The translations under genes and the position numbers were made by a program. Source: Candidatus Aceula meridiana (GTDB taxonomy: Bacteria; Omnitrophota; Gorgyraeia; Zapsychrales; Aceulaceae). From it: a stretch of DNA of 64,000 nucleotides. Positions 5,387-63,192 of this stretch are shown piece by piece. The notes beneath the pieces were generated by a model, which worked only from the letters and a program-made list of their open reading frames with translations, did no database searches and was not told the origin of the DNA. Each line of letters opens with the position of its first letter. Position 1 is the first letter of the stretch. The DNA lies in contig JAVCDE010000018.1 of NCBI GenBank assembly GCA_030765185.1, positions 2-64,001 of the forward strand, in the 5' to 3' direction.

Positions 5387-5387
5387 T

Positions 5388-14510: not shown

Positions 14511-14534
14511 ATGCGTTAAGATTTCTCCTTTTTT

Positions 14535-27112: not shown

Positions 27113-27127
27113 ATTTTGCCTTAATTC

Positions 27128-40198: not shown

Positions 40199-41800
40199 AT
40201 GAACCCTATTACATTTTTTCAGCTTCTATGCTCTCTCATAATCCTAGGAGCTGGTGTATTTGTTTTAATAAAAGATTATAGGTCGCGCATAAATCAAATA
40301 TTCTTTCTTATGTGCAGCTCGACCACGTTATGGCTTTCATATTGCTCCATTATGTTTTGGAAAGGAATAGAACATACAGAAATTCCTTTTTTTGTTAAAC
40401 TTTCTTATTGTGGAATAACTTTTATTCCAGTTTTTGTCAATCACTTCAGCTGTCTTTTTACGAATAATCGCTATATAAAGAAAATTCTCCCCTTTACGTA
40501 TTCCTATGCCTTTCTTTCCTGTTTTTTAATATTAAAAACAAAATTTATTATAAAAGATATCAAGCACTTTTCGTGGGGACCTTATCCACAAGCTGGTATT
40601 TTTCACCCCATCTATCTAACAATTTTTATAGGAATAATTATACATACGGTCCTGACCTTATTCTATTCTTTGAAAGACCCAAGAAGATATTCCTCAAAAT
40701 CAGTTCAAGAAAAACACATACTACTGCTTGGATTCATGCTTTTTAGCCTAGGTTCTTTAGATTTTATCCCTAATTACGGAATTAGTATGCGTCCGCTAGG
40801 GTTTATTCCAGCAACAATTTTTATTTTTATATTTGCTTATGCGATAATAAAACATCATATCTTAGATATAAATCTTTTTATAAAAAAAGGGATTATCTAT
40901 TCTTTTTTAATTGTTTTTATCACATTCTTATATTTTGCTTTAATACTGATTGCTGAAAAAATACTGCAAGGAATCGTTGGGTATCGGTCTTTTTCAATCA
41001 GCGTCTTAACGGCATTTACCTTAGGTATATTATTTATTCCTTTAAGAAATAAGATTCAATATTTTGTTGATCGCATATTTTATAGAGGCTCTCAAGAAGA
41101 AATTGCCCGAGAAAATGAACTCTTACGCCAAGAATTAGCGCAAACAGAAAAACTTAAGGCAGTTGCTGCTCTAGCCAGCGGAATGAGTCACGAAATCAAA
41201 AATCCGTTGACGGCGATCAAGACTTTTACAGAATATCTGCCCGAAAAAAAAGACGATAAGGAATTCTTGGATAAATTTGCAAAAATTGTGGGAAAGGAGG
41301 TCGACCGCATTGACGATATTGTCCACCAACTCTTAGAGTTTGCAAAACCTTCTCCCTTTTCCTTTAAGGAAACCAATATTCATAAACTCCTTGATGAGAC
41401 AATAGACTTCTTAAACAGCAAGCTAATTAAGAATAAAATTAAAATTTTAAAAAAATATTCAGAAAATAGCGCGCCCCTTGAAGCTGACCCTGGCAAGCTT
41501 AAACAAGCATTTCTAAACATCCTTCTTAATGCTATTGAGGCCATGCCTATTGGTGGTATTCTTGAAATTCACACGGAAAGCAATAGCGATAAATTGACGA
41601 TCAGTATAGTAGATATAGGCCCCGGCATCTCTAAAAAAGATCTTAAAAATATCTTTGATCCTTTTTATACAAAAAAAGATGGCGGAACAGGATTAGGATT
41701 ATCTATTACTCAGAGAATTATTTCGGAACACAACGGAAGAATTTGGGCGGAAAGCAAAACCGGGCAGGGCGCAAAATTTGTAATCGAATTACCTCTTTAA
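40199..41800 (+). CDS. Sensor histidine kinase with an N-terminal 7TM sensor domain
   Basis: Seven N-terminal TM helices. HisKA H-box (AALASGMSHEIKNPLTAIKTF). HATPase_c N, G1 and G2 boxes (LLNAIEAM, VDIGPGI, GGTGLGLS). Confidence 0.8.
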   Translation: MNPITFFQLLCSLIILGAGVFVLIKDYRSRINQIFFLMCSSTTLWLSYCSIMFWKGIEHTEIPFFVKLSYCGITFIPVFVNHFSCLFTNNRYIKKILPFTYSYAFLSCFLILKTKFIIKDIKHFSWGPYPQAGIFHPIYLTIFIGIIIHTVLTLFYSLKDPRRYSSKSVQEKHILLLGFMLFSLGSLDFIPNYGISMRPLGFIPATIFIFIFAYAIIKHHILDINLFIKKGIIYSFLIVFITFLYFALILIAEKILQGIVGYRSFSISVLTAFTLGILFIPLRNKIQYFVDRIFYRGSQEEIARENELLRQELAQTEKLKAVAALASGMSHEIKNPLTAIKTFTEYLPEKKDDKEFLDKFAKIVGKEVDRIDDIVHQLLEFAKPSPFSFKETNIHKLLDETIDFLNSKLIKNKIKILKKYSENSAPLEADPGKLKQAFLNILLNAIEAMPIGGILEIHTESNSDKLTISIVDIGPGISKKDLKNIFDPFYTKKDGGTGLGLSITQRIISEHNGRIWAESKTGQGAKFVIELPL

Positions 41801-42981
41801 ATCTCACCTTTTTTCAGCAGCTTGGCAAAAGCTTCAGCAACAAAAGGATTAAACTGTATTCCGGAATTCTTGGAAATCTCTTCTCTTGCCTCGTCGTGGC
41901 TTAAGGCCTTTCGGTAGGGTCGGTCTGTGGTCATAGCATCAAAAGTATCTGCCACGGCAATAACCGCAGCCATTAATGGAATTTCTTCACCTTTTAATCC
42001 GGCCGGATATCCCTTGCCGTCGTATCGTTCATGATGATGTTTCACACCTTTTAAGGGTTCTTCAAATTCAGGAAGGGTTTTAAGAATCTCAGCCCCTCTT
42101 GCCGGGTGCTCCTTAATCTGATCATATTCTTCATCAGTGAGTTTATCTGTTTTGCAGAGAATCTGCTCCGGCACAGCAATTTTTCCAATGTCATGTAAGA
42201 GCCCTGCGATATATAAATTCTCAAGAAACTTCTTAGGGAGATCAACTTTCCCGCTCTTTGAAAGCTCTTCAGCAACAGCCATAGAATACTTTGTAACACG
42301 CTCTGTGTGACCGCGCGTATATTTATCCTTGGCCTCAATGGTTGAGGCTAGAGAAAGCGTTGTGTTAATAAACAAAATCCTGTTCCGCTCGACTTCTTTG
42401 CGCAGGTCATCGATAAGCTGAGAATTCTGAAGAGCCATTGCCACATTAGACGCCAAGGCCGATAAGAAATCAAGCTCCTCTTGATCGTATCCTTCATTGG
42501 TAGATTTTTCGCCTAACAAAAGAAGCGCTAAAAGGTTGTTATGAAAATATGACGGAACACACGTTAAAACATTAAACATTCCCATTTGGCGGATAACGCT
42601 ATTTAAAAATTCCTTTTTTTCCTTTTCGCTGGCTAAAACGCTCTCTTGCCAAATCAATTTGTTTAAATCCGAGACAACTAAATACCCTTTTTTGGCAAAT
42701 TGCTCCCGGTATTGCTTTTCAGTAAAAAGTTTTACCAAAGGATTATCTTTTTTAAACTTCGCAAAACCAGGTGGGATTTTCATCCCTTCTTTTCCGCCGG
42801 AGATGGTTAGAACATAGCAATCCTTTTCAGGCTGATAAAGCAAAACACCGGCATGCTTGGCATGAACCTTGCGTACAATCAAGCGAATAATCAGCTTAAT
42901 CAAAAGATTAGGATCATGAATCAAAATCATGCCCCTTGAGGCGTTTTCAAGTTCTTTTTTGTAGTTAAGTTTTGTTAGCAT
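41797..42981 (-). CDS. HD-GYP domain phosphodiesterase with an N-terminal GAF-like domain
   Basis: HTERVTKYSMAVAEEL...IAGLLHDIGKIAVP...HHERYDGKGYP. Confidence 0.85.
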   Translation of the reverse strand: MLTKLNYKKELENASRGMILIHDPNLLIKLIIRLIVRKVHAKHAGVLLYQPEKDCYVLTISGGKEGMKIPPGFAKFKKDNPLVKLFTEKQYREQFAKKGYLVVSDLNKLIWQESVLASEKEKKEFLNSVIRQMGMFNVLTCVPSYFHNNLLALLLLGEKSTNEGYDQEELDFLSALASNVAMALQNSQLIDDLRKEVERNRILFINTTLSLASTIEAKDKYTRGHTERVTKYSMAVAEELSKSGKVDLPKKFLENLYIAGLLHDIGKIAVPEQILCKTDKLTDEEYDQIKEHPARGAEILKTLPEFEEPLKGVKHHHERYDGKGYPAGLKGEEIPLMAAVIAVADTFDAMTTDRPYRKALSHDEAREEISKNSGIQFNPFVAEAFAKLLKKGEI

Positions 42982-43131: not shown

Positions 43132-43506
43132 CTACTCTTTCCTTCCCAATTCCTTCATCACAATCTGCTCAAGTTCATCTAACGCTAAGGGCTTATGGAC
43201 ATAGCCTGTAACACCTAGGCTTTCAACTTCGCTGATAACTTCTGGGTCTTCAACTCCGGTTACCATAATAATCTTAACTTGATTCCCTTGTTTGCGCAAG
43301 GTCCTTAAGGTATCTACCCCACTTAACTCTCCCATGCGCACGTCTAAAAGCATAAGGTCCGGTGTTTCTTTTTCAAGGATGCTAAGCGCTTCTTTCCCGC
43401 CGGAAGCTGTTAAGACATCGATTTTTCGTTTTTGAAAGAAGTTTTTTGCAAACTCCCGAACATCTGATTCGTCATCAACAATAAGTAATTTTGGCATCGT
43501 AGTCAC
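43132..43506 (-). CDS. Stand-alone response-regulator receiver
   Basis: KLLIVDDESDVRE...DLMLLDVRMGELSGVDTLRTLR...VKIIMVTG...TGYVHKP. Confidence 0.8.
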   Translation of the reverse strand: MTTMPKLLIVDDESDVREFAKNFFQKRKIDVLTASGGKEALSILEKETPDLMLLDVRMGELSGVDTLRTLRKQGNQVKIIMVTGVEDPEVISEVESLGVTGYVHKPLALDELEQIVMKELGRKE

Positions 43507-45802: not shown

Positions 45803-46891
45803 CTAAATTTTATCAGCCTTCGTTATATACCCAGCATTATGACAATAAGAAAATATTTCTAGAAAATACCGATTGTTAATTCTTGGATAAAAGAAATTAT
45901 ACCTACCTAATACTTCCCGAGTGTGTTCCGAACAAAAAATACATTTAAAATTAAAATAGTGAATGTACGGCTCTACCATTCTTTTTTGTACGAAAGTTAT
46001 TTCTTTGAAATCAAATTTCTCTATAGGTATAAACTTAGGATTTCTAAAATTAAAGAAGATTGCAGCTAAGTCAAGGAATTTTCCACAATGAGAATTATTT
46101 GGACTCATGATATGAAATACGTTATTTTCCTCTACGTTCTTGCTTAAAACAAAGATTGCTTTTGCCGCAACATCTACTGGTATAAAATTATGGATAGTCT
46201 GCCTATTTGCGGGAACTTCTTTTAAAATTCCTTTCGAAAATATCCGCATGGGTTCATATATCATTTTAAATTTATTAATTTTCCCATCTTTATAAGATCC
46301 CATGATAACGCTCGGTCGGAAAATTAAATAACAAAACTTATTGTTCACATTCTTTCTGACTAACTTTTCTGCCTCAAACTTACTATACTCGTAATAATTA
46401 CCGAATCGCTGGTCAACATCAAAATCGCGCTCTGAAAATCTCCCATCGTGATTACCTGCGATGAAAGCTGTACCGATATAATTAAATTTCTCAATTACTT
46501 TTGAATTGTTAGCTAGCGATAAAATATTCCGCGTAGTATCTATATTAGATTTAATTGCTTCTTTTTTACTTATACGAAAATCTGTAGCAGCAGCACAGTG
46601 ATAAATAGAATTTATCTTTGAAGCCAATTTGGAATAATTAAACTTATTTAATCCTAAATCCCGATCGGATAGATCCCCTCGAAGCACAACAATCCTATCT
46701 AAGAATTTCTCGCATCCGATGCTACGCATGAGAACAAGGCCCCGCTTCTGGGCTTGCTTTTGATTCTTAGCTCTAATAATTAAATTTATAATAGAAACGG
46801 TTTCGTTAAGAAGTACTTTTAAAATCTGCGCTCCGAGCACACCAGTTGCGCCCGTTAACAAAATATTAGAAAAGCACGATTTCTTGCCCAT
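45803..46891 (-). CDS. NAD_binding_4 (thioester/fatty-acyl reductase-like, male-sterility family) oxidoreductase
   Basis: LLTGATGVLGAQILKVLL...VLRGDLSDRDLGL...INSIYHCAAATDF...YSKFEAE, a YxxxK-type extended SDR of the acyl-reductase family. Confidence 0.6.
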   Translation of the reverse strand: MGKKSCFSNILLTGATGVLGAQILKVLLNETVSIINLIIRAKNQKQAQKRGLVLMRSIGCEKFLDRIVVLRGDLSDRDLGLNKFNYSKLASKINSIYHCAAATDFRISKKEAIKSNIDTTRNILSLANNSKVIEKFNYIGTAFIAGNHDGRFSERDFDVDQRFGNYYEYSKFEAEKLVRKNVNNKFCYLIFRPSVIMGSYKDGKINKFKMIYEPMRIFSKGILKEVPANRQTIHNFIPVDVAAKAIFVLSKNVEENNVFHIMSPNNSHCGKFLDLAAIFFNFRNPKFIPIEKFDFKEITFVQKRMVEPYIHYFNFKCIFCSEHTREVLGRYNFFYPRINNRYFLEIFSYCHNAGYITKADKI

Positions 46892-46924
46892 TTAGCACCT
46901 ACAACAGTATCTAACGTTGTTCTA

Positions 46925-48364
46925 TTATATGCTTTTACGCTTTAGTATAATTGCCTTCGCAACCTTTTTCCCAGAAGATGCAGCCATAGCAACGCCGCCG
47001 TTTCCGTATTTTTCTGTTACCCAATGTCCAACAAAGAATAAATTTTTAATAGATTCAAAATTGCTATGTGCGGGATTATTAACATTTTCAACTGTGTTCA
47101 TCCACCCGCAGACCGCACCATTTTTATTCCATGTATATTTTTCAAATAATAAAGAATTGGCATGCCCCTTACAAATTATATGTTTGTGCACATCCGGGAT
47201 TATATTCTTTGCCTGCTCAACTAATCGGTCAGACAACATAGAATTATAATCTTTCCAATAACTTAAGCCATGATGATTTGTACTAGTCATCAGGCGAATA
47301 ATATCCTGACCTGAGGGCATCAAGCTGTCATCTAATTTTGAAGATATCGAACAAAACATTCCTCTGTCCGGGCTTTCTGCCTCATCCGCATCTTTAGAAG
47401 AATATAAACAACGTTTGTTAGGAACATACCAAATCCCTGGGCCTGTATCTAAAGCCTTTTTATATTGCTTGTCTAAAGTCAAATATAAAACAAAATTTGA
47501 ATAAGTTGTTTCTAAGTTTTCTATTTTTCTCAAAAAACGAGAATCTGCTTCTTGCCTTCCTATTAAGTTGATAATTGTGCGAGAAAAATCACAATTTGAT
47601 ACAACGATTTTAGAAAAATAACTACCGCCGTCCTTCAATCTAACGCCATAACATTTCTTATTCTTAATTAAGATCTTAGCCACTTCCTTATTTAGAATAA
47701 CATTGCCCCCTGCCCCAATAAAGGCCTCAAAAAGAGAATCTGGAATTCTCTGTATACCTCCTTCAGGATAATATCCTCCATCGATTATAAACTGCCTAAT
47801 CAAAACAATGGCTGCTACGGCGGAAGTCTTTCTCGCAAAAGATCCTATATTTCCAAGAAAAACTTCGAAAATCGCTTTTAATTGTTCCGACTTAAAGAAA
47901 ATGTTTAGAACGTCTAAAAAAGTATTTCTACGATATCTAAAATATAAAGAAATTAAGCTTTCGCTATATAGTAAATTAAAGAAATCTTGGAGAGACTTCT
48001 TTTCAGTTGGAAATACATTCTGAAAATTATTTATCGTTTTATTTTGATCATTAAAAATATGAAGTTTTCCACTACGAAATATTATTGTATCAGTTGGATC
48101 AGATCGGTTAAACTTTAATTTATTGCTTTTTATTAATTCAGAAAAAATTATATCCAAGATTGATCCACGAGAACAACTTTGTACCGCATGAACTGCCGCA
48201 TCAAAAAGACAGCCTCTTCTTTTAAAAGATACGCAATACCCACCCGGTTGAGGATTTTTCTCGACAATAAGCACCTTCATCCCAGCTTTTGCTAAATAAC
48301 AACCGCATACTAAGCCGCCGATCCCCGCCCCAACGATTATTGCATCATAATTATTCTTTTTCAT
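46925..48364 (-). CDS. FAD-dependent oxidoreductase, phytoene-desaturase-like (CrtI/COG1233 family)
   Basis: N-terminal dinucleotide-binding motif YDAIIVGAGIGGLVCGCYLAKAGMKVLIVEKNPQPGGYC, and a C-terminal amine-oxidase-like region. Confidence 0.7.
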   Translation of the reverse strand: MKKNNYDAIIVGAGIGGLVCGCYLAKAGMKVLIVEKNPQPGGYCVSFKRRGCLFDAAVHAVQSCSRGSILDIIFSELIKSNKLKFNRSDPTDTIIFRSGKLHIFNDQNKTINNFQNVFPTEKKSLQDFFNLLYSESLISLYFRYRRNTFLDVLNIFFKSEQLKAIFEVFLGNIGSFARKTSAVAAIVLIRQFIIDGGYYPEGGIQRIPDSLFEAFIGAGGNVILNKEVAKILIKNKKCYGVRLKDGGSYFSKIVVSNCDFSRTIINLIGRQEADSRFLRKIENLETTYSNFVLYLTLDKQYKKALDTGPGIWYVPNKRCLYSSKDADEAESPDRGMFCSISSKLDDSLMPSGQDIIRLMTSTNHHGLSYWKDYNSMLSDRLVEQAKNIIPDVHKHIICKGHANSLLFEKYTWNKNGAVCGWMNTVENVNNPAHSNFESIKNLFFVGHWVTEKYGNGGVAMAASSGKKVAKAIILKRKSI

Positions 48365-48366
48365 TC

Positions 48367-49593
48367 TTAGTTAGCCTGCCTTAATATTAAACACGCATTA
48401 TTCCCGCCAAAAGCCTGAGAATTATTTAGCGCTGTTTTTACTTTATGATTTTTGGCTTTATTTGCAACACAATCGATGTCACATTCCTCATCTTTTGTTG
48501 TGAAATTTGTAGTTGGCGGAATCTTTCCTTTTTTTATAGATAAACAGCATACAACCGCTTCTATGGCGGCGGCAGCCCCTAGGGTATGACCCAGCATAGA
48601 CTTGATTGAGCTAATCGGAATTTTCTTTGACCTTTGCCCAAAAACATCAAAAATTGCCCTGCATTCAGCACTATCGTTTTCCTTAGTACCTGTGCCATGG
48701 GCGCTAATATAATCAACCTGATCCGGACTAATAGCAGAATTTTTAAGCGCTTTTCGGGTAGCTTTTAATATCTGCTCGCTGGCAGAAGCTGTCATGCTGT
48801 TGGCATCGCAAGAAAGCCCATAGCCTAAAATCTCTGCATAAATATTTGCCTTACGTTTCTGAGCGCTTTCTAGCGATTCTAAAATTAGCATTCCTGCTCC
48901 TTCACCTAACATCATGCCTTTTCTGTTTTTATCAAAAGGTTGACATTTTTCCGGTGCCATAGCTAATAGGCGATGAAAGCCTGTAAAAGCAATCATAGAA
49001 AATGCATCCACTCCACCCGCAAGCATCATGCGTGCTTCACCTTTTCTAATAAGATCGTACGAATAGCCTGTCGCATAATTTCCGGCTGAACACGCATTAC
49101 CAAAAAGCAAACTATCTTTACAAATTTTAAGCTCATGAGAAACATTTAACGTGATTGAATTTGATGGATACGTTAAAGCTGAAATGCTGTCTGCCTTTAA
49201 TCTTCCTTGCGGCATAGAATTGATAATAGCTTCCTCTAGGATCTGAGGCTCCCCCATCGTAGTCCCAAGACAAACACCGGTCCGCTCTTTTGGCAAGGAT
49301 TTAACAGTGAGTCCTGCATCTTTAATGGCTAGCTTTGCTGCGGCAATCGCCATTTGCGACGCGCGGCCCATTTGATTGACTTTTCTCCTATCAATAAATT
49401 GGCACGGATCAAAATTCCTAACCTCTCCGCCATAATGGCGGTCGTATTTCGAAGTATCAAAGCTTTCGATCTTGCTAATACCAGATTTTCCGGCTAAAAG
49501 ATTTTTCCAAAAATCCTGCCAGCCAATGCCGATAGACGATACAACGCCAAGACCGGTTACGACAACTCTCTTTGAATCTGGAATTTTAATCAT
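48367..49593 (-). CDS. Beta-ketoacyl-ACP synthase of the KAS I/II (FabB/FabF) type
   Basis: VVVTGLGVVSSIG. Active-site Cys (NACSAGN) and both His (SAHGTGT; LGHTLGAAAAIE), giving a Cys-His-His triad. Confidence 0.85.
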   Translation of the reverse strand: MIKIPDSKRVVVTGLGVVSSIGIGWQDFWKNLLAGKSGISKIESFDTSKYDRHYGGEVRNFDPCQFIDRRKVNQMGRASQMAIAAAKLAIKDAGLTVKSLPKERTGVCLGTTMGEPQILEEAIINSMPQGRLKADSISALTYPSNSITLNVSHELKICKDSLLFGNACSAGNYATGYSYDLIRKGEARMMLAGGVDAFSMIAFTGFHRLLAMAPEKCQPFDKNRKGMMLGEGAGMLILESLESAQKRKANIYAEILGYGLSCDANSMTASASEQILKATRKALKNSAISPDQVDYISAHGTGTKENDSAECRAIFDVFGQRSKKIPISSIKSMLGHTLGAAAAIEAVVCCLSIKKGKIPPTTNFTTKDEECDIDCVANKAKNHKVKTALNNSQAFGGNNACLILRQAN

Positions 49594-50030
49594 TTTTGCT
49601 TTATGCTATAGAAAATTTTAATTTTTGCAACCGAATCTTCAGAAGCATGAACAGAAATATCAGCATAACCACCGGTTTTAAGCATCTTGCCGGGCAAAAC
49701 TTTCAAGGTAAGTTGATCTCCAATTCTTACTGCAGATATAAATTCTGCCTCGACTTTTCCTATTAAATATAAATTCTTACTTGGTCCTTTTTCTAATTGT
49801 GAAGTCAATAAAAGTGTCGCTTGCGCAGCCGCCTCAATCACAAGCGTTTCCGGAAAAGCTGCTGAACCGCTATCGTTTTCGTTAACAGCCCATTCATTGC
49901 CCGTAATATTTTTAACGGCAACAAGGCTTTCATTTTCTTTATAATCAACGACCTTATCAATCAGCAAAAAAGGATATCTTTGCGGTAAAATTTCTTGAAT
50001 TTCTTTAAAAGTGAGTGTTTTGTCTTCCAT
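49590..50030 (-). CDS. FabZ-like hot-dog fold protein with the canonical catalytic His substituted
   Basis: LPQRYPFLLIDKV...NITGNEW aligns to FabZ. The expected GHFPGNPVMPG block instead reads SAAFPETLV (His to Ala). It overlaps the KAS start. Confidence 0.6.
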   Translation of the reverse strand: MEDKTLTFKEIQEILPQRYPFLLIDKVVDYKENESLVAVKNITGNEWAVNENDSGSAAFPETLVIEAAAQATLLLTSQLEKGPSKNLYLIGKVEAEFISAVRIGDQLTLKVLPGKMLKTGGYADISVHASEDSVAKIKIFYSIKQK

Positions 50031-50112
50031 ATTATGTTAAATATATAAATATATATATTATATATATAGTATATAAGGAAACTATACTGGTTTCATCAAA
50101 AAAGTAGGATTT

Positions 50113-50174
50113 TTAAATGAGTGCCTGATTTGTGAAGCATGAACGACGCTTAGTCAGTCGCACGAATCTATCCC
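50113..50174 (-). promoter_or_regulatory. Conserved ~60-nt leader element, copy A, upstream of the hot-dog/KAS operon
   Basis: About 80% identical to copy B at 53359-53418 (ttaaatgagYgcctgaYtt..gaag...acgacg...agtcagYcgc..tgaatYtatcc). It contains an imperfect hairpin. Confidence 0.5.
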
Positions 50175-50205
50175 AGGAGTGCTTTAAAAACGACGTGGGG
50201 TTTCC

Positions 50206-51129
50206 TTACAGAAAAAGGCCTTCAATATCTGCCGGAGTAGCAATATTATAAACTTTTAATGAGGAATCGATCTTTCTTGCCAAGCCTTTTAAGACTTTTC
50301 CAGGGCCGATTTCAATAAAAGTAGTGACACCTTGCGATGCCATAAACTTTATGGAATCTTCCCAAAGCACGGATGAGGTAATTTGTTTATAAAGATTATC
50401 ACGCACAACATCTGCGCTTGATTGAGGCGCGGCATCAACATTGCCCACAACAGGAATTGCAAGGTCAGAAATAGCAGCACCATTTAAAGCTTGTTTAAAT
50501 TTATCCGCAGCCGACTGCATCAAGCTCGAGTGAAAAGCCCCTGCAACTGTTAGAGGAATAACGCTTTTAGCACCTGCCGCTGTAATCATCTCACAGGCCT
50601 TAACAACTTTTTCTTCTTCGCCTGAGATAACAATCTGCACCGGAGAATTAAAATTAGCAACCTCTACCCCTGCCTGAGCACAAAGCTCTTTTAATTTTTC
50701 CTTATCAAATCCAATAATTGCAGCCATAGAACCTTTTTGTGCCTTGCAGGCCTCATCCATGGCAGAACCTCTTTTTTCTACTAACGAAATCGCATCTTCA
50801 AAAGAAAACGCACCGGAGGCAATAAGCGCAGAATATTCGCCAAGGCTTAAGCCCGCGGTAAATCGCACGTTAAGACTAGAAAATTTTGGATGGGCTTTAA
50901 GAGCAGCAAGCGCCGCGCAAGAAAAACTTACAATCGCCGGTTGGCAGTAACTAGTTAATTTTAATTTATCTTCCGGACCATTAAAAATAACATCCAGCAA
51001 ATCATTGCCAAGCACACTTTGTCCTTTATCAAAAATAACTTTGGCCTCAGGCGAACTATCATAGAGCTCTTTGCCCATTCCAACAGTTTGAGCACCTTGT
51101 CCCGGAAATATTAAAGCTACGTCTACCAT
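50206..51129 (-). CDS. fabD: Malonyl CoA-ACP transacylase
   Basis: IFPGQGAQTVGMG, and the nucleophile elbow G(L)SLGEYSAL. Confidence 0.9.
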   Translation of the reverse strand: MVDVALIFPGQGAQTVGMGKELYDSSPEAKVIFDKGQSVLGNDLLDVIFNGPEDKLKLTSYCQPAIVSFSCAALAALKAHPKFSSLNVRFTAGLSLGEYSALIASGAFSFEDAISLVEKRGSAMDEACKAQKGSMAAIIGFDKEKLKELCAQAGVEVANFNSPVQIVISGEEEKVVKACEMITAAGAKSVIPLTVAGAFHSSLMQSAADKFKQALNGAAISDLAIPVVGNVDAAPQSSADVVRDNLYKQITSSVLWEDSIKFMASQGVTTFIEIGPGKVLKGLARKIDSSLKVYNIATPADIEGLFL

Positions 51130-52100
51130 TTTAAAACCATCGCCCCTGAAACCAAGCCTGCCCCAAATGCCACTAAAATGACATAATCACCTTTACGAAT
51201 ACGCTCAACTTCGATCGCTTCATAAAGTGCAACCGCGGCTGAGGCCGCAGACATGTTTCCATATTTTTCAATGTTAATAAAAAACTTCTCCTTTGGAATT
51301 TTTAATTTCCTGGCAACACCGCTAATAATTCTATCGTTAGCTTGATGCGGAACAACACAGGCAACATCTGAAATCTTTATTTTTGCTTTTTTAAGTGCCT
51401 GTTCGACGCAGTCTGCCATAGAATTAACGGCGATCTTAAAGAGCTCAGGCCCTCTCATACGGATATAGGGTAACTCTCCTGAAGAATGTTTTGGCTTAGA
51501 CGGATGACGCGTCTCAGGCGTAATGACCTTCATAAGCTCTCCGAACTCACCAAAACTTTCTAAATGCTCGGATAAAATTCCTTTTCTTTTGCCGCATGCT
51601 AGAATGCACGCCCCTGCTCCGTCGCCAAATAAAACACATGTTCCTCTGTCTTGCCAATCAATCATAGTCGTCAATTGGTCTGCGGCAATAACAAGCGCAT
51701 TTTTATACATACCTGTTAATAAAAATTGATGCGCTACCGACATCGCATACACATATCCGCTGCAGGCTGCCGAAATATCAAAAGCAACAGCTTGCTTGGC
51801 ACTGATAGCTTTTTGAACAAGGCACGCGACCGATGGAAAATTACTGTCCGGTGAGGTTGTGGCAACAATGATAAGTTCAATTTTTGATGCAGCAAGCTTT
51901 GCGTTATGCAAGGCTTCTTTGGCAGCTTCAATGGCTAAATGTGATGTCTTTTCATGTTCTCCGGCGATACGGCGTTCTTTGATGCCTGTGCGCGTTACAA
52001 TCCACTCGTCTGAAGTCTCAACTATTTTTTCTAAATCTGCATTGGTAAGCTTCTTTTTAGGAACATACTTCCCAACAGAAACAATTTCAATATTTTTCAT
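51123..52100 (-). CDS. fabH: Beta-ketoacyl-ACP synthase III
   Basis: VTRTGIKERR; DISAACSGYVYAM (Cys); HQANDRII (His); YGNMSAASAA (Asn). Confidence 0.9.
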   Translation of the reverse strand: MKNIEIVSVGKYVPKKKLTNADLEKIVETSDEWIVTRTGIKERRIAGEHEKTSHLAIEAAKEALHNAKLAASKIELIIVATTSPDSNFPSVACLVQKAISAKQAVAFDISAACSGYVYAMSVAHQFLLTGMYKNALVIAADQLTTMIDWQDRGTCVLFGDGAGACILACGKRKGILSEHLESFGEFGELMKVITPETRHPSKPKHSSGELPYIRMRGPELFKIAVNSMADCVEQALKKAKIKISDVACVVPHQANDRIISGVARKLKIPKEKFFINIEKYGNMSAASAAVALYEAIEVERIRKGDYVILVAFGAGLVSGAMVLKW

Positions 52101-52103
52101 GAA

Positions 52104-53090
52104 TTAATTAACCTCTCTGATAAGTTCACTGATGATGTTGTTTTCAACTTCGTGGATGGTTGCACGGATGGCATTTTTAATTGCCTTGGCATTAGAGCGG
52201 CCATGACTAATCATAACAAGACCATTAACGCCAAGTAAGGGTGCTCCACCATACTCAGAATAATCAGCATGTTTTTTAATATGGCTAAGACGTGTCTTCA
52301 TAAGAAAAGCACCCCACATTGCAAGAGGGACTTTTCTAACCTCCCTCTTAATAAGGCTGCCTGCAGCCTCCATGAGGCTTTCAGAAATCTTAATAACGAT
52401 ATTGCCAGTATATCCATCAGTAATAATGCAATCATATTCCCCTTTATAAATCTCATTAGCTTCGACATTGCCGGAAAAATTTGGAAGATTCTCCGAGAAA
52501 AGTTTATGCGTCTCTTTCATGAAATCACTTCCTTTTGTCTCTTCCGCGCCGATGTTCAAAAGTCCAATACGTGGATTCGTAATATTGAGAACTTTCTGCG
52601 CATAAACATTAGCCATTAATGCTGAATGTAAAAGATGCTTTGGCTTTGGATCAATGTTTGCCCCAACATCAATAAGAAAAGAAAACTTCTTTAATGTCGG
52701 CAGAACAAGTCCGATCGCCGGGCGCTCAACGCCGGGAAGCATTCTTAAATAAACAGTCGAAGCAGAAACCACCGCTCCGGTATTTCCAGCGCTGATAAAG
52801 GCGTCGTATTTTTCAGATTCTTTTAGAAGGCGAATGCCAACAGAAATGGAAGAGTTTTTCTTTTTGCGTAGAGAGATGACAGCTGAATCGTGCATGCCGA
52901 TGATATCCGGTGCATGAACAATCTCAATTCGGTCTTTAGGATAATCTTGATGGCTAAGTTCAGCGCGTATGCGCGATTCAATACCGACTAAGGTAATCGT
53001 GACATCAAATTCTTCCAGAGCCTGAACTGCACCTTGGATAATTTCGTATGGGGCGTGATCGCCGCCCATGGCATCAAGAATAATATTCAA
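52104..53090 (-). CDS. plsX: Phosphate acyltransferase PlsX
   Basis: MNIILDAMGGDHAPYEIIQGAV N-terminal signature. Confidence 0.9.
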   Translation of the reverse strand: MNIILDAMGGDHAPYEIIQGAVQALEEFDVTITLVGIESRIRAELSHQDYPKDRIEIVHAPDIIGMHDSAVISLRKKKNSSISVGIRLLKESEKYDAFISAGNTGAVVSASTVYLRMLPGVERPAIGLVLPTLKKFSFLIDVGANIDPKPKHLLHSALMANVYAQKVLNITNPRIGLLNIGAEETKGSDFMKETHKLFSENLPNFSGNVEANEIYKGEYDCIITDGYTGNIVIKISESLMEAAGSLIKREVRKVPLAMWGAFLMKTRLSHIKKHADYSEYGGAPLLGVNGLVMISHGRSNAKAIKNAIRATIHEVENNIISELIREVN

Positions 53091-53148: not shown

Positions 53149-53349
53149 TTATTTAACCTTTTTCTTTTCTTTCACTTTTACTTCAACAACTTGTTTCCCT
53201 TTATAGTGACCACAGAAAGGGCAAACACGATGCGAAATAATTTCTTTCTTGCAGTTTGGACATGGCTTTGAGCCTGGAACGTCAGTTTTCCAATGCGTTC
53301 TTCTCTTGCGACTCCGCTGTTTTGAATGTTGTCTTTTTGGTAGTGCCAT
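53149..53349 (-). CDS. rpmF: 50S ribosomal protein L32
   Basis: MALPKRQHSKQRSRKRRTHW...CPNC...CPFCGHYKG. Confidence 0.9.
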   Translation of the reverse strand: MALPKRQHSKQRSRKRRTHWKTDVPGSKPCPNCKKEIISHRVCPFCGHYKGKQVVEVKVKEKKKVK

Positions 53350-53454: not shown

Positions 53455-53868
53455 CTACTTGTTACACTTGCATTTTTCTTCATTTAAATTTATCCCACAA
53501 CTTTGACAAATTCCTTTGCAATCATCGCGGCAAAGTATCTTCATGGGAATTTCTGTAATAATTTCTTGCCGAATATCATCGCCGAGCTCGATATGATTTG
53601 TCGTCGGCTCAATCATATAATTAAATTTAAAATCTTTTTGAATCTCTTTTTCAAAGGACTCAAGGCAACGCGTACAAACAAACGAAAACTTAGCCTTAAC
53701 TTCTGCCGCCACCGTTACCGCATTGGTAATCTTCTCAAGCTTAGCGAAAACCTCAACCGGCTGAATAATACAACTCACTGCATCATCACTAAAATCAAAC
53801 TCGTCCTGGCTTATTACCCCATCTATGCTTACCGGATACGAAGGAATATCTCTAACGGCGATTCTCAT
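53455..53868 (-). CDS. yceD: YceD/DUF177-family protein
   Basis: Cys cluster CTRCLESF...CRDDCKGICQSCGINLNEEKCKC. It sits in the conserved position upstream of rpmF. Confidence 0.8.
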   Translation of the reverse strand: MRIAVRDIPSYPVSIDGVISQDEFDFSDDAVSCIIQPVEVFAKLEKITNAVTVAAEVKAKFSFVCTRCLESFEKEIQKDFKFNYMIEPTTNHIELGDDIRQEIITEIPMKILCRDDCKGICQSCGINLNEEKCKCNK

Positions 53869-57660: not shown

Positions 57661-58107
57661 ATGCACAAAAAAACAAGATGGCCCTGGAAGGTCTATTTCT
57701 TTATTTCGACATATATGGGAATAATAAACTTTATGGGACTACTCGCCGGAGATTCCCAAATTGACCAATATTATAAAATTCTTATTGTCTTTAAACGAAG
57801 CTACCTTATCTGGTATGGGTTTAATATTGCCAGTATTTCTACAGAGGCGCTCTGCCTTATTCCCCTCTTTTTGTTTGTCTTTCACAAACGCTTTTTAAGT
57901 CCTTTTGTCTGGCAATCTCTTTTTGGAATACGAATCGTCCTTTTTTTTCTAGGCCACTCGTATGAAGTAAAAATGATAAAATCTTATTTTTATGCTAACT
58001 CTGCTGTTGCTGCCGGATCAATTGTCTTCTTATTTCTCTTAATGCTTCCTGCCTATATCGCACATTTTCAATATGCATTCCGACAGAAAAAATTATTTGC
58101 TACTTAA
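57661..58107 (+). CDS. Hypothetical small polytopic membrane protein
   Basis: Four hydrophobic segments. Support is weak: it is an ORF only, with no recognisable family. Confidence 0.3.
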   Translation: MHKKTRWPWKVYFFISTYMGIINFMGLLAGDSQIDQYYKILIVFKRSYLIWYGFNIASISTEALCLIPLFLFVFHKRFLSPFVWQSLFGIRIVLFFLGHSYEVKMIKSYFYANSAVAAGSIVFLFLLMLPAYIAHFQYAFRQKKLFAT

Positions 58108-61100
58108 GCCTTAGGCATCCCATTTTCTCGGATAGTGGAATGGTGTAAAATTTTCTCAGAAATATCATCAATAATCGCATAAATACACGGGATGATGATA
58201 AGCGTTAGGCCCGTCGCAAAAAACAGCCCCCAAATAATAGCCAAGGCCATTGGTTTTAAGAATGGGTCCCCTCCGCCGATTCCATAGGCAACAGAAACAA
58301 GTCCCATAATTGTTGTGATGCTTGTCATTAAAACAGGCCTTAAACGTATTTGACCAGCCTGAACCAATGATTCTCGCCTAGGCTGACCGGATTTTCGCAA
58401 TTTATTAACAAAATCAACAAGCACGATAGCATTGTTGACAACGATGCCCGTCAGTCCGACCAAACCCATAAGCGCAAAGAAGCTTAGAGGGCGGCCATGA
58501 ATAAAGAACGCAATAATAACTCCCAAAAGTCCAAAAGGAATCGCAAGCATAACCACAAAAGGCTGGATAAGTGATTTAAAAATTGCCGTTAAAATAATAA
58601 AAATAAAGAAGAATGCAAATAAAAAAGACCTCATAAGATTGCGGGTAGATTCTTGCTGGTCTTCGTATTCACCGCTATATTTTACCGTGTATCCAAGGTG
58701 ATCCCTCTCGACATTTTTAAACTGTTTTTGGAGCGCCAAATTGGCGCTTAAGGATGAGGCCTTCTTGCCATCAGCGCTGGCGACAACCCAAATGACACGT
58801 TTTCCGTCTAAATGACTAATGACGTAGATTCCCTCTTCTTGCACAACTTGTGCAACGGCTTTCAAAGGAACCAAAGCTCCTTTGGAGTTAGAAACTAAAA
58901 TTTTATCAAATGTTTCAAAACTTCTGCGGTCGTTATCAGGAAAGCGAACAAGGACATTAATTTCATCTTCCGCTTTTTCAGGCCTTACGGTTGTTGCCAG
59001 ACCTCCTTTAAAAACCGCCCTCACAGTATCAGCAATAGAGCTAACATCTAAATAATATTGACGAGCCTTTTGTTCATCGACAACAATACGTAGCTGTTTC
59101 TTTCCGTATTGATAGGAGGTGTCTGCGTCAGAGATTCCCTCCATACCTTGCAAGTATTTTATAAAATCATCCGCAACCTTTTGGGAAACAGAAAAATCAT
59201 CTCCTTTAATTCCAACCTGTACCGAACGCCCGGTAGGAGGGCCTTCTTTTGCCAAATAAAAATATAACTTCTTAAAACCTTGAATTTTCTCAAGCTGCGG
59301 CCTTAACGATTCGACAATTTGTCCTGGATTTCTTTTACGTTCTTGCATTGGCGTTAAAAAGACCGTAATCTGGGCAAGATGGGTCCCTCGTTTTGCGTTT
59401 TCATCCCAGCCCCCTTCGCGTTCGATACTCCCAATATAGGTGCGATAGCTATCAACTTCACCTTTAGGAAGCGTTCCTATTAATTTTTCAACCGGATTAA
59501 GGAGTTCATTCATTTTCTCAAGAGGCGTTCCTTGGACCGCTTCAGCTCGAACATAAAAATATTCAATTCCCTCGCCTGAAAAAAGAATAATTTTCATATA
59601 CATCGCGGCACTCATGCACACAACAATAAAAGTAATAACAAGACCAGTTAAAACTATATAACGGCGATCTAACGCTCCATTTAAAATTCTAGTGTAAAAG
59701 GCAACTAAATTTTTAAACCATTTCTTTTCTTTTTTCTTTACTATACCTTCTTTATTTTGATGTGAATTATGATGTTTAAATTTTTCAAGAAGGCCAGAAA
59801 GATGCGCTGGCAAAATAATAAAAGCTTCTAGGAGAGAGGCAACGAGGGCGACCATGACGACAATCGGAATTTGCTTGATAAACTTCCCCATAATATCTTT
59901 CATAAACATCAACGGAGCAAAAGCAGCAATGGTGGTTAAAATTGTTGCGGTCACAGGAGCAATGACTTCACTTGTGCCTCGGATAGCAGCTTCGCGCGCA
60001 GGCATCCCTCCTTCAACATAGCGGTAAACATTCTCAGAAACAATAATACCGTCATCGACTAACATTCCAAGCACAATAATTAACCCCAGCATTGAAACAA
60101 GGTTGATGCTAATGCCTAAAATATTCATAACAATAAAAGTTGAAAAAAGAGCAATCGGAATTCCTAGAGCCGTCATCACTGCCGGAATGGGGTCCAAGAA
60201 TAAAAAAAGAACTAAAAGAACCAATGCAAACCCGAGCATACCGTTGTTTCTCAAAACATTCAGCCTTCGCTGAACATAATATGAAAAATCATTGGTAATC
60301 GTAATCTTCACATTATCCGGAAGTGTCTTCTGAAAGGACTCGACAACTTTTCGCACCCTAGAGACAACGCGGATAACATCCGCGGCCTCACTCTTGACAA
60401 CAACCATGCCTAACGCACGCTGGCCGTTAATTAAAGCAATACGTGTCTCATCTTCAAACGTATCATAAACCTTGGAAACGTCTTTAACGCACAAATGATT
60501 GCCCATGTCATTAGCACGAATAATAACCTCAGCAATTTGATCTGCCGTTTTAAAATCACCGGTTACACGAATGTTATACTCTACATCGTCTGTTGTTAAC
60601 AACCCACCAGGCAAAGTAACATTGCGACGGTTAAGCGCGGTCATAATTTCCTGTAGGGAAATATGATATTCATTTAATTTTACAGGGTCAACTTCAACCC
60701 AAAATTCCGGGTCTCTCCATCCTATGCGGCTTATACTGGCGACACCCTTAATATCAAGAATCTGATCTTCTAAAGACTCGGCATATTGGCGTCGTTGTTT
60801 TTCCAAGATGTCTCCGCTTAGTGAGATTTCGATAACAGGGCGGTCTTTGCTACGCAGTTCATAAACATATGGGTCGTCTTTAATTTCGGCAGGTAAATTA
60901 CTAACGCGGTCCACCGCCCGCTTGATATCATCAACAACCTGCCTTTTATCACTAGCTTGGGGGTCAATCGTAATGCCTATAGATGAAAGCCCTTCTTCTG
61001 AACTCGAGTTCATCTGCTTGATGCCGCTTAAACCCTTAATTTCTTTTTCAATGGGGATTGTCACAAGCTTCTCAACGTCTTCTGCCGGAGCCCCAGGATA

Positions 61101-61268
61101 ATAAGTTGTAATCGTAAGGACATCAAGGTCAACAAGAGGAAAAGCATCTCTCTGCAGGCTCATCATGGAAAAAATTCCTGCAAAAATAATAAAAAATGAA
61201 AGCAAATTAATAAGCAATGAATTCTTAACTGAAAGTTCTGCTAGCTTCATTAGATCCCCTCCTGCCAA
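58104..61268 (-). CDS. RND-family efflux transporter permease (AcrB/HAE1-like)
   Basis: 1054 aa, 12 TM helices and two large periplasmic loops. Conserved N-terminal LINLLSFFIIFAGIFSMMSLQRDAFPLVDLDVLTITTYYPGAPAEDVE. Confidence 0.9.
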   Translation of the reverse strand: MAGGDLMKLAELSVKNSLLINLLSFFIIFAGIFSMMSLQRDAFPLVDLDVLTITTYYPGAPAEDVEKLVTIPIEKEIKGLSGIKQMNSSSEEGLSSIGITIDPQASDKRQVVDDIKRAVDRVSNLPAEIKDDPYVYELRSKDRPVIEISLSGDILEKQRRQYAESLEDQILDIKGVASISRIGWRDPEFWVEVDPVKLNEYHISLQEIMTALNRRNVTLPGGLLTTDDVEYNIRVTGDFKTADQIAEVIIRANDMGNHLCVKDVSKVYDTFEDETRIALINGQRALGMVVVKSEAADVIRVVSRVRKVVESFQKTLPDNVKITITNDFSYYVQRRLNVLRNNGMLGFALVLLVLFLFLDPIPAVMTALGIPIALFSTFIVMNILGISINLVSMLGLIIVLGMLVDDGIIVSENVYRYVEGGMPAREAAIRGTSEVIAPVTATILTTIAAFAPLMFMKDIMGKFIKQIPIVVMVALVASLLEAFIILPAHLSGLLEKFKHHNSHQNKEGIVKKKEKKWFKNLVAFYTRILNGALDRRYIVLTGLVITFIVVCMSAAMYMKIILFSGEGIEYFYVRAEAVQGTPLEKMNELLNPVEKLIGTLPKGEVDSYRTYIGSIEREGGWDENAKRGTHLAQITVFLTPMQERKRNPGQIVESLRPQLEKIQGFKKLYFYLAKEGPPTGRSVQVGIKGDDFSVSQKVADDFIKYLQGMEGISDADTSYQYGKKQLRIVVDEQKARQYYLDVSSIADTVRAVFKGGLATTVRPEKAEDEINVLVRFPDNDRRSFETFDKILVSNSKGALVPLKAVAQVVQEEGIYVISHLDGKRVIWVVASADGKKASSLSANLALQKQFKNVERDHLGYTVKYSGEYEDQQESTRNLMRSFLFAFFFIFIILTAIFKSLIQPFVVMLAIPFGLLGVIIAFFIHGRPLSFFALMGLVGLTGIVVNNAIVLVDFVNKLRKSGQPRRESLVQAGQIRLRPVLMTSITTIMGLVSVAYGIGGGDPFLKPMALAIIWGLFFATGLTLIIIPCIYAIIDDISEKILHHSTIRENGMPKA

Positions 61269-62752: not shown

Positions 62753-63192
62753 TTAACTTCCTTCATCTTTTCATCAAATCCTTTAATAATCTTTTTTAAA
62801 AGTTGCACATAGGTCTGCTGATCTTTAACTGACAAAATACTGGCAATAACACCCCATCGCTGCATAAAGGCTCTTTGAAGATGGCCAGACACCTTCTTGC
62901 CTTTCAGTGTCAATGCAATTCGAACAACACGTCGGTCCTTGGTGTCGCGCTGTCTTTTTGCAAGCCCCGAGCGCTGCAACCTATCAACAATACCTGTCAC
63001 CGTCGGAGCTGAAACTTTCATCTGTGTACTTAGTTCGCCGACTGTCTTTTCTTTACGCTCGGATAAAATCATAATGGCAGCCATCTGGGCCGGCGGAACA
63101 TCGATTTTCTCCATTAGGCCTGAGTGTATTCTTTTTAAAAAAGCCGGCAAAATTTGAGAAATTTCTTTTGCGGGGTTTGCTTTTGGGCTCAC
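62749..63192 (-). CDS. MarR-family transcriptional regulator
   Basis: Winged HTH: MAAIMILSERKEKTVGELSTQMKVSAPTVTGIVDRLQRSGLAKRQRDTKDRRVVRIALTLKG. Confidence 0.85.
   Translation of the reverse strand: MSPKANPAKEISQILPAFLKRIHSGLMEKIDVPPAQMAAIMILSERKEKTVGELSTQMKVSAPTVTGIVDRLQRSGLAKRQRDTKDRRVVRIALTLKGKKVSGHLQRAFMQRWGVIASILSVKDQQTYVQLLKKIIKGFDEKMKEVK

Follow-up and report, generated by a model that had tools for sequence, protein, structure and literature searches.

Genes following fabD in Candidatus Aceula meridiana: a candidate side branch of fatty acid synthesis in Omnitrophota

What is made by the genes that follow fabD in the fatty acid synthesis (FAS) locus of Candidatus Aceula meridiana, a member of the Omnitrophota, and are they peculiar to this genome? 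The window analyzed here is a stretch of 64,000 nucleotides (nt) from GenBank assembly GCA_030765185.1 (contig JAVCDE010000018.1, positions 2 to 64,001 of the forward strand). In this window the string yceD-rpmF-plsX-fabH-fabD stops at fabD and is followed, after a spacer, by genes for a FabZ-like hot-dog protein, a β-ketoacyl synthase (KS), a flavoprotein, and a stand-alone thioester reductase (TR). A preliminary description of this DNA proposed that a four-gene cassette had replaced fabG-acpP-fabF and that synthesis of a specialized lipid had been grafted onto the core FAS locus. The locus is neither such a replacement nor a one-off graft, since the same layout is standard across Omnitrophota and was observed in about 16 loci. 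The reading we favor, still tentatively, is that the locus encodes an Omnitrophota version of the FAS side branch of the type found in anammox bacteria and in type II polyketide synthase (PKS) systems, embedded in the core FAS locus. The chain released by such a branch would be a tailored fatty aldehyde or alcohol, probably with unsaturation, and the branch would be coupled to a membrane sensor.

Conserved frame and exchangeable slot

The compared loci come from contigs with homologues of the window genes and from a metagenome scan for the DNA signature of KNITGNEW, a motif of the hot-dog protein; the hits of the scan were annotated by home-made hidden Markov models (HMMs). In about 16 distinct loci we observe the same frame: recG-rsmD-coaD-yceD-rpmF-plsX-fabH-fabD, a spacer, the hot-dog gene, the KS gene, a slot of variable content, a seven-transmembrane (7TM)-GAF histidine kinase, a receiver, and an HD-GYP protein. 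Judged from gene order, the hot-dog/KS pair is the fixed core of the locus, and the flavoprotein and TR of the window are one of several exchangeable fillings of the slot (Table 1). The pair follows fabD in most loci. In one locus (L088) it follows sensor kinases, and there the string hot-dog/KS/flavoprotein/TR/kinase lies away from fabD.

An example of slot exchange is provided by the closest relative of the window (L086). The frame proteins of the two loci are 86–92% identical (89% for the KS), with 70% for the hot-dog protein and 71% for the kinase. The slot of L086 contains not a flavoprotein and TR but an ICMT/PEMT-type methyltransferase and a divergent protein similar to acyl-acyl carrier protein (ACP) reductase (AAR).

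Table 1. Gene content of the variable slot in the compared loci.
Slot content	Loci
Flavoprotein + TR	window, L088, L092
TR + nitroreductase + flavoprotein	L090 (GCA_043814605.1)
TR alone	L098/L122/L134, L102, L103
AAR-like alone	L085, L131
Short-chain dehydrogenase/reductase (SDR) + AAR-like	L091
Flavoprotein + AAR-like	L101
Methyltransferase + divergent AAR-like	L086/L087
Methyltransferase + second KS	L083
Flavoprotein + methyltransferase + second KS	L114
Flavoprotein + second KS	L133
Chain length factor (CLF)-like + KS + second KS + flavoprotein	L130

An acyl-thioester reductase occupies the slot in 12 of the 16 loci; it is either a NAD_binding_4 protein or a member of the unrelated AAR/PigE-N-like type. 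With the corresponding HMMs, the NAD_binding_4 TRs score 409–422 bits, and the AAR-like proteins score 110–120 bits (TIGR04058) and 154–174 bits (PigE); the latter proteins match the cyanobacterial long-chain acyl-ACP reductase and the N-terminal part of PigE. The replacement of one reductase by a non-homologous one in the same slot points to a single shared function and is the strongest argument that the common output of these loci is a reductively released chain.

The TR of the window was described correctly as a NAD_binding_4 protein (171.6 bits against a Pfam cut-off of 20.1); it falls below the cut-off of TIGR01746 (141 vs. 213 bits). It carries the motifs TGATGVLG (TGxxGxxG) and YEYSK (Y-x-x-S-K), and its closest solved structures are chain-releasing enzymes, namely MxaA, the terminal reductase (R) domains of PKSs and nonribosomal peptide synthetases (NRPSs), and carboxylic acid reductase. 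Based on its family and on its alternation with AAR-like proteins in the slot, we infer that it converts acyl thioesters by reduction into aldehydes or alcohols. A Black Sea survey found "ElbD homologues" in 93 of 267 Omnitrophota metagenome-assembled genomes (MAGs) (PMC11868695), and these might be the same TR. The alternation of two unrelated reductases in one slot offers a useful marker for genome mining and may explain the "ElbD homologue" counts.

Two further observations concern the gene content of relatives. Small genes of family PF05635 (23S_rRNA_IVP/bAvd-like four-helix bundle) are found inside the FAS locus of L083 (8425–8775), L091 (9533–9952), L086 (11349–11741), and L085 (8387–8749). 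Their insertion points differ, one of them being between the hot-dog and KS genes, and the window has none. In L090, the genes for the KS, the CLF-like protein, the reductase, and the flavoprotein have AAA_14/DUF4143 genes and a Y1 transposase (2964–8102 and 13725–14570) scattered between them, which suggests that mobile elements reshuffle clusters of this type.

Ketosynthase, hot-dog protein, and flavoprotein

The preliminary description proposed to place each protein by HMM search or phylogeny. None of the cut-offs specific for FabZ, FabF, and CrtI is reached, and only the KS just passes a broader model. Its score with the fabF model TIGR03150 is 415 bits vs. a cut-off of 494, and with the β-ketoacyl-ACP synthase (KAS) II subfamily model PRK07314 it is 392.7 vs. 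387. The intact Cys-His-His triad reported earlier is confirmed (Cys168, His299, His336), and the Lys and the gating Phe are also kept. Among solved structures, the KS ranks chain B of Protein Data Bank (PDB) entry 9s5h first (439 bits), followed by Iga11 of the ishigamide type II PKS (336 bits) and by canonical FabF (about 290 bits). The text of the preprint on the amxFabF2/amxFabFmut heterodimer of Brocadia fulgida (10.64898/2026.05.19.726425) states no PDB code; we infer that 9s5h is this heterodimer because the entry contains two KSs, the triad of its chain C is mutated, and it ranks first with the window KS.

The KS is 52% identical to amxFabF2, 43% to Iga11, and 38–39% to FabFs of Firmicutes. 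In a neighbor-joining tree, the Omnitrophota KSs group with amxFabF2 (99% bootstrap) and then with Iga11 (100%), leaving outside the canonical FabF sample of two Firmicutes proteins. Within this group, the KSs that have no CLF and are paired with a hot-dog protein form a derived clade (100% bootstrap). Conservation is strong: more than 120 clusters reach an identity of 58% or higher, and the labeled ones among them are nearly all from Omnitrophota. In anammox bacteria, amxFabF2 shows no activity unless its CLF-like partner is present (preprint 10.64898/2026.05.19.726425). The CLF-less KSs may have gone back to homodimers; the net charge of their helix-loop-helix (−2 to +2, vs. −3 in amxFabF2 and 0 to +1 in FabF) does not tell whether this is so. 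Partner-like proteins do occur in relatives: the CLF-like protein of L090 scores 353 bits with amxFabFmut (9s5h chain C; next match 255 bits), and it shares with its counterpart in L130 the amxFabFmut changes Cys-to-X, His-to-Asn/Cys, and His-to-Glu.

The other core protein, the hot-dog protein, has lost the catalytic histidine of FabZ. It matches Pfam FabA with 41 bits and fails the curated equivalog cut-offs for FabZ (NF000582, 86 vs. 113 bits; TIGR01750, 77 vs. 155 bits). An AlphaFold2 (AF2) model (mean predicted local distance difference test score, pLDDT, 86) superimposes on E. coli FabZ (6n3p) with a template modeling (TM) score of 0.89 and on amxFabZ (7qv0) with 0.87, so that the predicted fold is of the FabZ type. 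In the ungapped alignment of residues 45–66, NEWAVNENDSGSAAFPETLVIE, with E. coli FabZ, Asn52 occupies the position of the catalytic His, the helix-cap Gly is replaced by Glu61, and the catalytic Glu is kept as Glu66. The block SAAFPETLV named in the preliminary description is thus shifted relative to the true position, although the absence of His there stands.

The same replacement is seen throughout the clade (59 clusters at 90% identity). None of the 59 members has His at the catalytic position, whereas Glu66, Trp47 of the motif KNITGNEW, Pro60, and Gln70 are invariant, and position 61 is Glu or Gln in 56 of them. A catalytic dyad at shifted positions, raised earlier as counter-evidence, was considered and rejected for the window: position 58 is His in 13 of the 59 members, whereas it is Ala in the window protein, whose single His (H127) is not a conserved residue. 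Exhaustive searching with a profile yielded 58 representatives (clusters at 50% identity) at E ≤ 1e-30, and about 55 of the top 150 profile matches have the NEW motif without GHFP. Canonical FabZs with His also occur in Omnitrophota (P0060–P0085). Two metagenome loci (L111 and L125), in which KS/CLF-like pairs are encoded nearby, have KNITGNEW dehydratases with an intact GHFPG; by their sequences they appear to be catalytic forerunners of the His-less clade.

A specific relationship of the hot-dog protein to amxFabZ is likewise not claimed. The profile ranks amxFabZ at the top (110 vs. 88 bits), but in pairwise comparison the protein lies as far from amxFabZ as from E. coli FabZ and Omnitrophota FabZ (74–100 bits). 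At the position of the amxFabZ tunnel residue Ile69 it has a bulky Leu, in a protein without the catalytic His. All genes of the locus have strong homologues and are real; the ratio of nonsynonymous to synonymous substitution rates (dN/dS) was calculated against the closest relative and amounts to 0.05 in the KS, 0.10 in fabD, and 0.16 in the hot-dog gene. By this measure the hot-dog protein is under purifying selection and functional, yet more relaxed than its neighbors. This conserved His-less family of FabZ fold comprises about 55 clusters at 50% identity and never occurs uncoupled from a KS; it offers a clear example, within FAS, of a pseudo-enzyme or of an enzyme put to a new use.

The flavoprotein is indeed a flavin adenine dinucleotide (FAD)-dependent oxidoreductase resembling phytoene desaturases, as described previously, with a Pfam Amino_oxidase match (81 bits), a GxGxxG FAD-binding motif, and a CrtI-like predicted fold (AF2 pLDDT 92; nearest structure CrtD-like 4rep, TM score 0.81). 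Its scores are 4- to 6-fold under the cut-offs of carotenoid families; with TIGR02734 (crtI_fam) it reaches 109 bits vs. 238, and all other families are further below. It is 33% identical (195 bits) to the anammox protein kuste3607, for which a truncated sequence was used, 27% to kuste3336, and 23% (91 bits) to Pantoea CrtI. Of the 18 residues invariant in the family, kuste3607 has 16, including PGGYCxSFKRxGxLFDAAVH, and CrtI has 12, mostly the generic glycines of FAD binding. kuste3607 cannot substitute for CrtI in lycopene synthesis (PMC4790861). The kinship of the locus with anammox Cluster I (amxFabF2 and kuste3607) and with the KSs of type II PKSs was missed in the preliminary description, as was its invariable link to a sensor kinase.

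Proposed pathway, alternatives, and the rest of the window

In the favored reading, the branch would draw malonyl-ACP and acyl-ACP from housekeeping FAS, since no ACP gene belongs to it and the genes for FabD and FabH are its neighbors. The special KS would make or select a particular acyl-ACP. The flavoenzyme would introduce or shift a C=C bond without O2, on either the ACP-bound or the released chain. This fits a strict anaerobe, because O2-dependent desaturases would be useless to it: Ca. Aceula meridiana is an obligate fermenter and obligate anaerobe from the anoxic zone of cold Ace Lake in Antarctica (PMC8542988). TR would then release the chain reductively as a fatty aldehyde, possibly continuing to the alcohol. 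Most likely the His-less hot-dog protein would not dehydrate anything and would serve as an acyl-ACP-binding or gating partner; that it might be a Glu-dependent thioesterase, with Glu61 and Glu66 at the N-terminus of the central helix, is speculation. The product could serve as a building block of membrane lipids, such as ether lipids, or as a lipid signal that the co-transcribed kinase reads. Among the products suggested in the preliminary description, the comparison best supports, through the slot reductases, a fatty alcohol, a fatty aldehyde, or an unsaturated chain; a polyene appears very improbable. For the Omnitrophota, a very widespread uncultured phylum, the locus is a concrete and testable candidate for chain modification without O2.

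Several points weigh against this pathway. Every step is a prediction from the genes. The substrate of TR may be an ACP or a CoA thioester, and any role of kuste3607-type flavoproteins is putative, even in anammox bacteria. The CLF-like partner that amxFabF2 needs is absent from the window, and the link of the hot-dog protein to amxFabZ is weak, being visible at the profile level only, with equal pairwise distances to all FabZs. Four loci (L083, L114, L130, and L133) have no reductase and contain a second KS in its place, which is present in exactly these loci; it is a protein of 434 aa (L083, 12889–14193) with an intact Cys-His-His triad and 27% identity to the core KS. Finally, genes for ACP, ketoreductase (KR), and enoyl reductase (ER) are absent from the window locus and from the related loci, and tblastn with E. 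coli AcpP found no ACP in eight related loci. Because no locus has these genes, the KS may simply be the ordinary elongating enzyme of the lineage.

This last point leads to the housekeeping explanation, which we consider unlikely but credible. According to it, the KS is a divergent Omnitrophota FabF at the usual place of fabF, the hot-dog protein is a degenerate or regulatory paralogue of FabZ, and the flavoprotein and TR are unrelated neighbors. The position of the KS region directly after plsX-fabH-fabD in most loci, its strong conservation and low dN/dS, the lack of a dedicated ACP, and the score above the KAS II cut-off are all consistent with such a role. Against it are the score below the fabF equivalog cut-off and the grouping of the KS with amxFabF2 and Iga11 rather than FabF at 99–100% bootstrap. 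Moreover, the string persists away from fabD in L088, junctions of 2 nt bind the slot genes to the KS, and the slot always contains enzymes of lipid chemistry.

Another explanation, quite unlikely in our opinion, is that the product is a diffusible fatty-acid-derived signal. The slot enzymes would set the "dialect" of a species, and the signal would be sensed by the 7TM-GAF kinase and passed via the receiver to the HD-GYP protein, by a logic similar to that of the diffusible signal factor (DSF)/Rpf system. In every locus whose sequence extends far enough, the genes for these three proteins come after the biosynthetic genes. The kinase gene starts 2 nt after the TR stop codon in the window and is always the next gene after the slot in relatives; its product is 50–71% identical to its counterparts, except for 28% identity to a HisKA-type kinase in L090. 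The receiver and the HD-GYP protein are 92% and 91% identical to those of L086, the HD and GYP motifs are intact in the translation, and L090 encodes a fused receiver (REC)/HD-GYP protein with the architecture of RpfG. The complete turnover of the slot between close relatives with 86–92% identical frames is typical of specialized metabolites. At the same time, there is no RpfF-type crotonase at the locus, two-component genes are common nearby, with several other kinases close by, binding of a lipid by the kinase is hypothetical, and a sensor of membrane homeostasis would produce an identical gene order.

A broader version of the favored reading, in our estimate rather improbable, is that the Omnitrophota have rebuilt the end of the FAS operon across the phylum, with an anammox-type KS, a dead FabZ as its partner, and reductive release. 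The main membrane chains would then leave as aldehydes or alcohols for ether-type or otherwise unusual lipids, the slot would provide tailoring, and the 7TM kinase and HD-GYP protein would provide feedback. If true, the non-isoprenoid ether lipids of anoxic waters would gain a named producer and a pathway, and the phylum would serve as a natural minimal control for sorting out which anammox genes are ladderane-specific.

That the locus makes ladderane-like chains or polyunsaturated ones, in line with proposals for the anammox clusters, is very unlikely. No closer relatives of amxFabF2 and kuste3607 are known than the KS and the flavoprotein, whose genes also stand in the same order, "ladderane" clusters have been called by antiSMASH in Omnitrophota MAGs (PMC9902471), and anaerobic synthesis of polyunsaturated fatty acids (PUFAs) was proposed for similar clusters of cold-adapted anaerobes (Rattray et al., PMC2649909). 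These likenesses are outweighed by the absence of amxACP, of the CLF-like amxFabFmut, of a B12 radical SAM enzyme, and of a KR gene, and the dehydratase that a polyene requires is catalytically dead. The only radical SAM gene of the window (8905–9888) is of SPASM type and lies 37 kb away inside a polysaccharide cluster. The true-ladderane reading was rejected on these grounds.

Finally, a true carotenoid desaturase or isomerase placed next to FAS genes by coincidence is suggested by the best solved fold and sequence matches (CrtD-like and CrtI enzymes) and by annotations of relatives as "phytoene dehydrogenase-like" or "prolycopene isomerase", but it is extremely unlikely and was rejected, given the scores far below every carotenoid cut-off, the failure of Pfam scans to find crtB, crtE, or other isoprenoid genes in the window, the recurrence of the gene at 8 of the 16 loci, each time linked with the KS and the kinase, and the inability of its homologue kuste3607 to replace CrtI (PMC4790861).

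The coordinates of the locus are given in Table 2. All five upstream genes named in the preliminary description are present, with plsX, fabH, and fabD passing their NCBIfam cut-offs, and the length of the spacer was given correctly. The four downstream genes were also located correctly, but they do not form an overlapping four-gene operon: the only overlap among the core and slot genes is that of the hot-dog stop codon with the KS start (4 nt, ATGA), and the kinase is a fifth gene. The remaining junctions are 2 nt (KS/flavoprotein), 33 nt (flavoprotein/TR), and 2 nt (TR/kinase), and the last of these implies that the unit is longer than four genes.

Table 2. Features of the FAS locus and adjacent genes, in window coordinates.
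Feature	Coordinates	Strand	Comment
yceD	53455..53868	-	Pfam YceD 62.7 bits; equivalent position in L083-L092; upstream conserved frame
rpmF (ribosomal protein L32)	53149..53349	-	Pfam Ribosomal_L32p 75.6 bits
plsX	52104..53090	-	TIGR00182 336.5 bits, cut-off 243
fabH	51123..52100	-	TIGR00747 412 bits, cut-off 292
fabD	50206..51129	-	TIGR00128 324 bits, cut-off 261
AT-rich spacer, 175 bp	50031..50205	none	between fabD and the hot-dog gene
Hot-dog protein gene, 146 aa	49590..50030	-	core gene 1; FabZ fold (predicted), without catalytic His
KS gene, 408 aa	48367..49593	-	core gene 2; amxFabF2-type β-ketoacyl synthase
Flavoprotein gene, 479 aa	46925..48364	-	variable slot; CrtI-family FAD protein, kuste3607-like, non-carotenoid subfamily
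Stand-alone TR gene, 362 aa	45803..46891	-	variable slot; NAD_binding_4, SDR type
7TM-GAF histidine kinase gene, 730 aa	43608..45800	-	Pfam HisKA_7TM, GAF_2, HATPase_c
Stand-alone response-regulator receiver gene	43132..43506	-	Pfam Response_reg 101.5 bits
GAF/HD-GYP gene (cyclic di-GMP phosphodiesterase type)	41797..42981	-	Pfam HD_5 134 bits

A spacer of 100–300 bp separates fabD from the hot-dog gene in all relatives. In the window it contains a (TA)n tract, TATATACTATATATATAATATATATATTTATATA, at about 50040–50080, just upstream of the hot-dog start. The tract is shared with the spacers of L086, L083, and L091 and may be a promoter or regulatory element; beyond it, the alignment of the relatives' spacers contains no clear conserved motif. 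A scan for consensus promoters and terminators between 41.5 and 53.5 kb gave counts at the chance level and no terminator after fabD.

As reported in the preliminary description, there is no acpP or fabG in view. Searches of the 64-kb window by tblastn and by Pfam scans of sizable open reading frames found no acpP, fabG, fabI, or canonical fabZ, the ACP query being E. coli AcpP, which a very divergent ACP could escape. The window covers nearly all of a 64,019-bp contig of a MAG reported to be 92% complete (PMC8542988), and for this reason nothing can be concluded for the genome from the lack of acpP and fabG in view.

The rest of the window contains several other systems. Convergent with the locus and downstream of it (39265–41800, plus strand) are a second kinase of 7TM-HisKA type, a receiver, and an HTH-cupin regulator; upstream (58104–63192, minus strand) is a MarR-OEP-AcrB efflux set. 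Both groups are conserved neighbors in relatives. A 2578-aa protein (28431–36167, minus strand) with SpvB, TcdB_mid, FG-GAP, and RHS-repeat domains is a polymorphic toxin similar to Tc-toxin B/C, which fits the host-dependent or predatory lifestyle proposed for Omnitrophota. A capsule or exopolysaccharide cluster (539–20846) comprises a porin, Wza-like export, a Wzz/tyrosine kinase, a CpsB phosphatase, several glycosyltransferases (GT1/GT2/GT4), a flippase, a Wzy-like ligase, and a priming sugar transferase. Two adjacent DUF5684 proteins are encoded at 26078–27856 (minus strand).

Comparison with known systems

By gene content and sequence, the window falls outside Cluster I proper, outside canonical FabZ and FabF, and outside the CrtI family proper, and it shares some features with each of several systems. 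Two of these, the DSF/Rpf system (RpfF, RpfC, RpfG) and the DesK/DesR control of membrane fluidity, are analogies only. As in both, lipid genes seem to be coupled to a membrane histidine kinase, and the HD-GYP output would correspond to that of Rpf; unlike them, the window has neither an RpfF crotonase nor a Des-type desaturase.

Another partial likeness is to chain-releasing reductases such as R domains, MxaA, and carboxylic acid reductase. The window TR has their motifs, and AAR/PigE-N-like proteins take its slot in relatives. Unlike R domains, the window TR is stand-alone, and no partner consuming the aldehyde (an aldehyde-deformylating oxygenase, ADO, or an aminotransferase) is encoded nearby. 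With fabZ and fabF of canonical FAS II the locus shares the folds, the KS triad, the FabZ Glu, and the location in the FAS operon. It differs in that both equivalog cut-offs are failed, the FabZ His is gone, the KS lies outside the FabF clade, and neither fabG nor acpP adjoins it.

The highly reducing type II PKSs (ishigamide Iga10–16; cispentacin Amc) are closer. The KS belongs to the lineage of Iga11, and in both cases a FabZ-like gene adjoins the KS gene; there are also weak NCBIfam matches to AmcE and AmcF among the window proteins. In contrast to these systems, the window has no CLF, ACP, or KR, its dehydratase (DH) is catalytically dead, and the module belongs, as a conserved element, to the primary FAS locus and not to a secondary-metabolite island.

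FAS clusters with phytoene-dehydrogenase homologues were also described in the anaerobic Deltaproteobacteria Desulfotalea psychrophila and Geobacter, and anaerobic PUFA synthesis by cold-adapted anaerobes was proposed (Rattray et al., 2009, PMC2649909). antiSMASH calls of "ladderane" type, with "unknown function", were reported for Omnitrophota and other non-anammox MAGs (PMC9902471). Thus, ladderane-like clusters in Omnitrophota are already known at the level of automated annotation. Likened by description, all of these share with the window divergent FabF paralogues, a flavoprotein of the amine-oxidase family, and cold or anoxic hosts; those clusters differ in including radical SAM enzymes. 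In the searchable literature we found no description of the His-less FabZ clade, of a fixed core with a swappable slot, of the two alternative reductases, of the invariable kinase link, or of amxFabFmut-like genes in Omnitrophota.

The Omnitrophota and the phylum of the anammox bacteria both belong to the Planctomycetes-Verrucomicrobia-Chlamydiae (PVC) group. Cluster I of anammox bacteria (Kuenenia kuste3603–3608), a candidate ladderane cluster, contains amxACP, amxFabZ, amxFabF2, amxFabFmut, a phytoene-dehydrogenase homologue, and a B12 radical SAM enzyme. The window has the same gene order (FabZ-like, FabF2-like, flavoprotein), a KS of amxFabF2 type, and a flavoprotein of kuste3607 type, and two relatives (L090 and L130), unlike the window itself, carry an amxFabFmut-like partner. 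The differences are equally clear. The window has no dedicated ACP, no CLF-like partner, and no cobalamin-dependent radical SAM enzyme; its FabZ-like protein has no catalytic His, which amxFabZ keeps; and it adds TR and a sensor kinase in a module embedded after fabD. Homologues of the Cluster I enzymes amxFabF2, amxFabFmut, and kuste3607, described as unique to ladderane producers, thus occur, reduced and recombined, in a non-ladderane phylum, and as a comparative control they make amxACP and the B12 radical SAM enzyme, both missing here, the better candidates for ladderane-specific chemistry.

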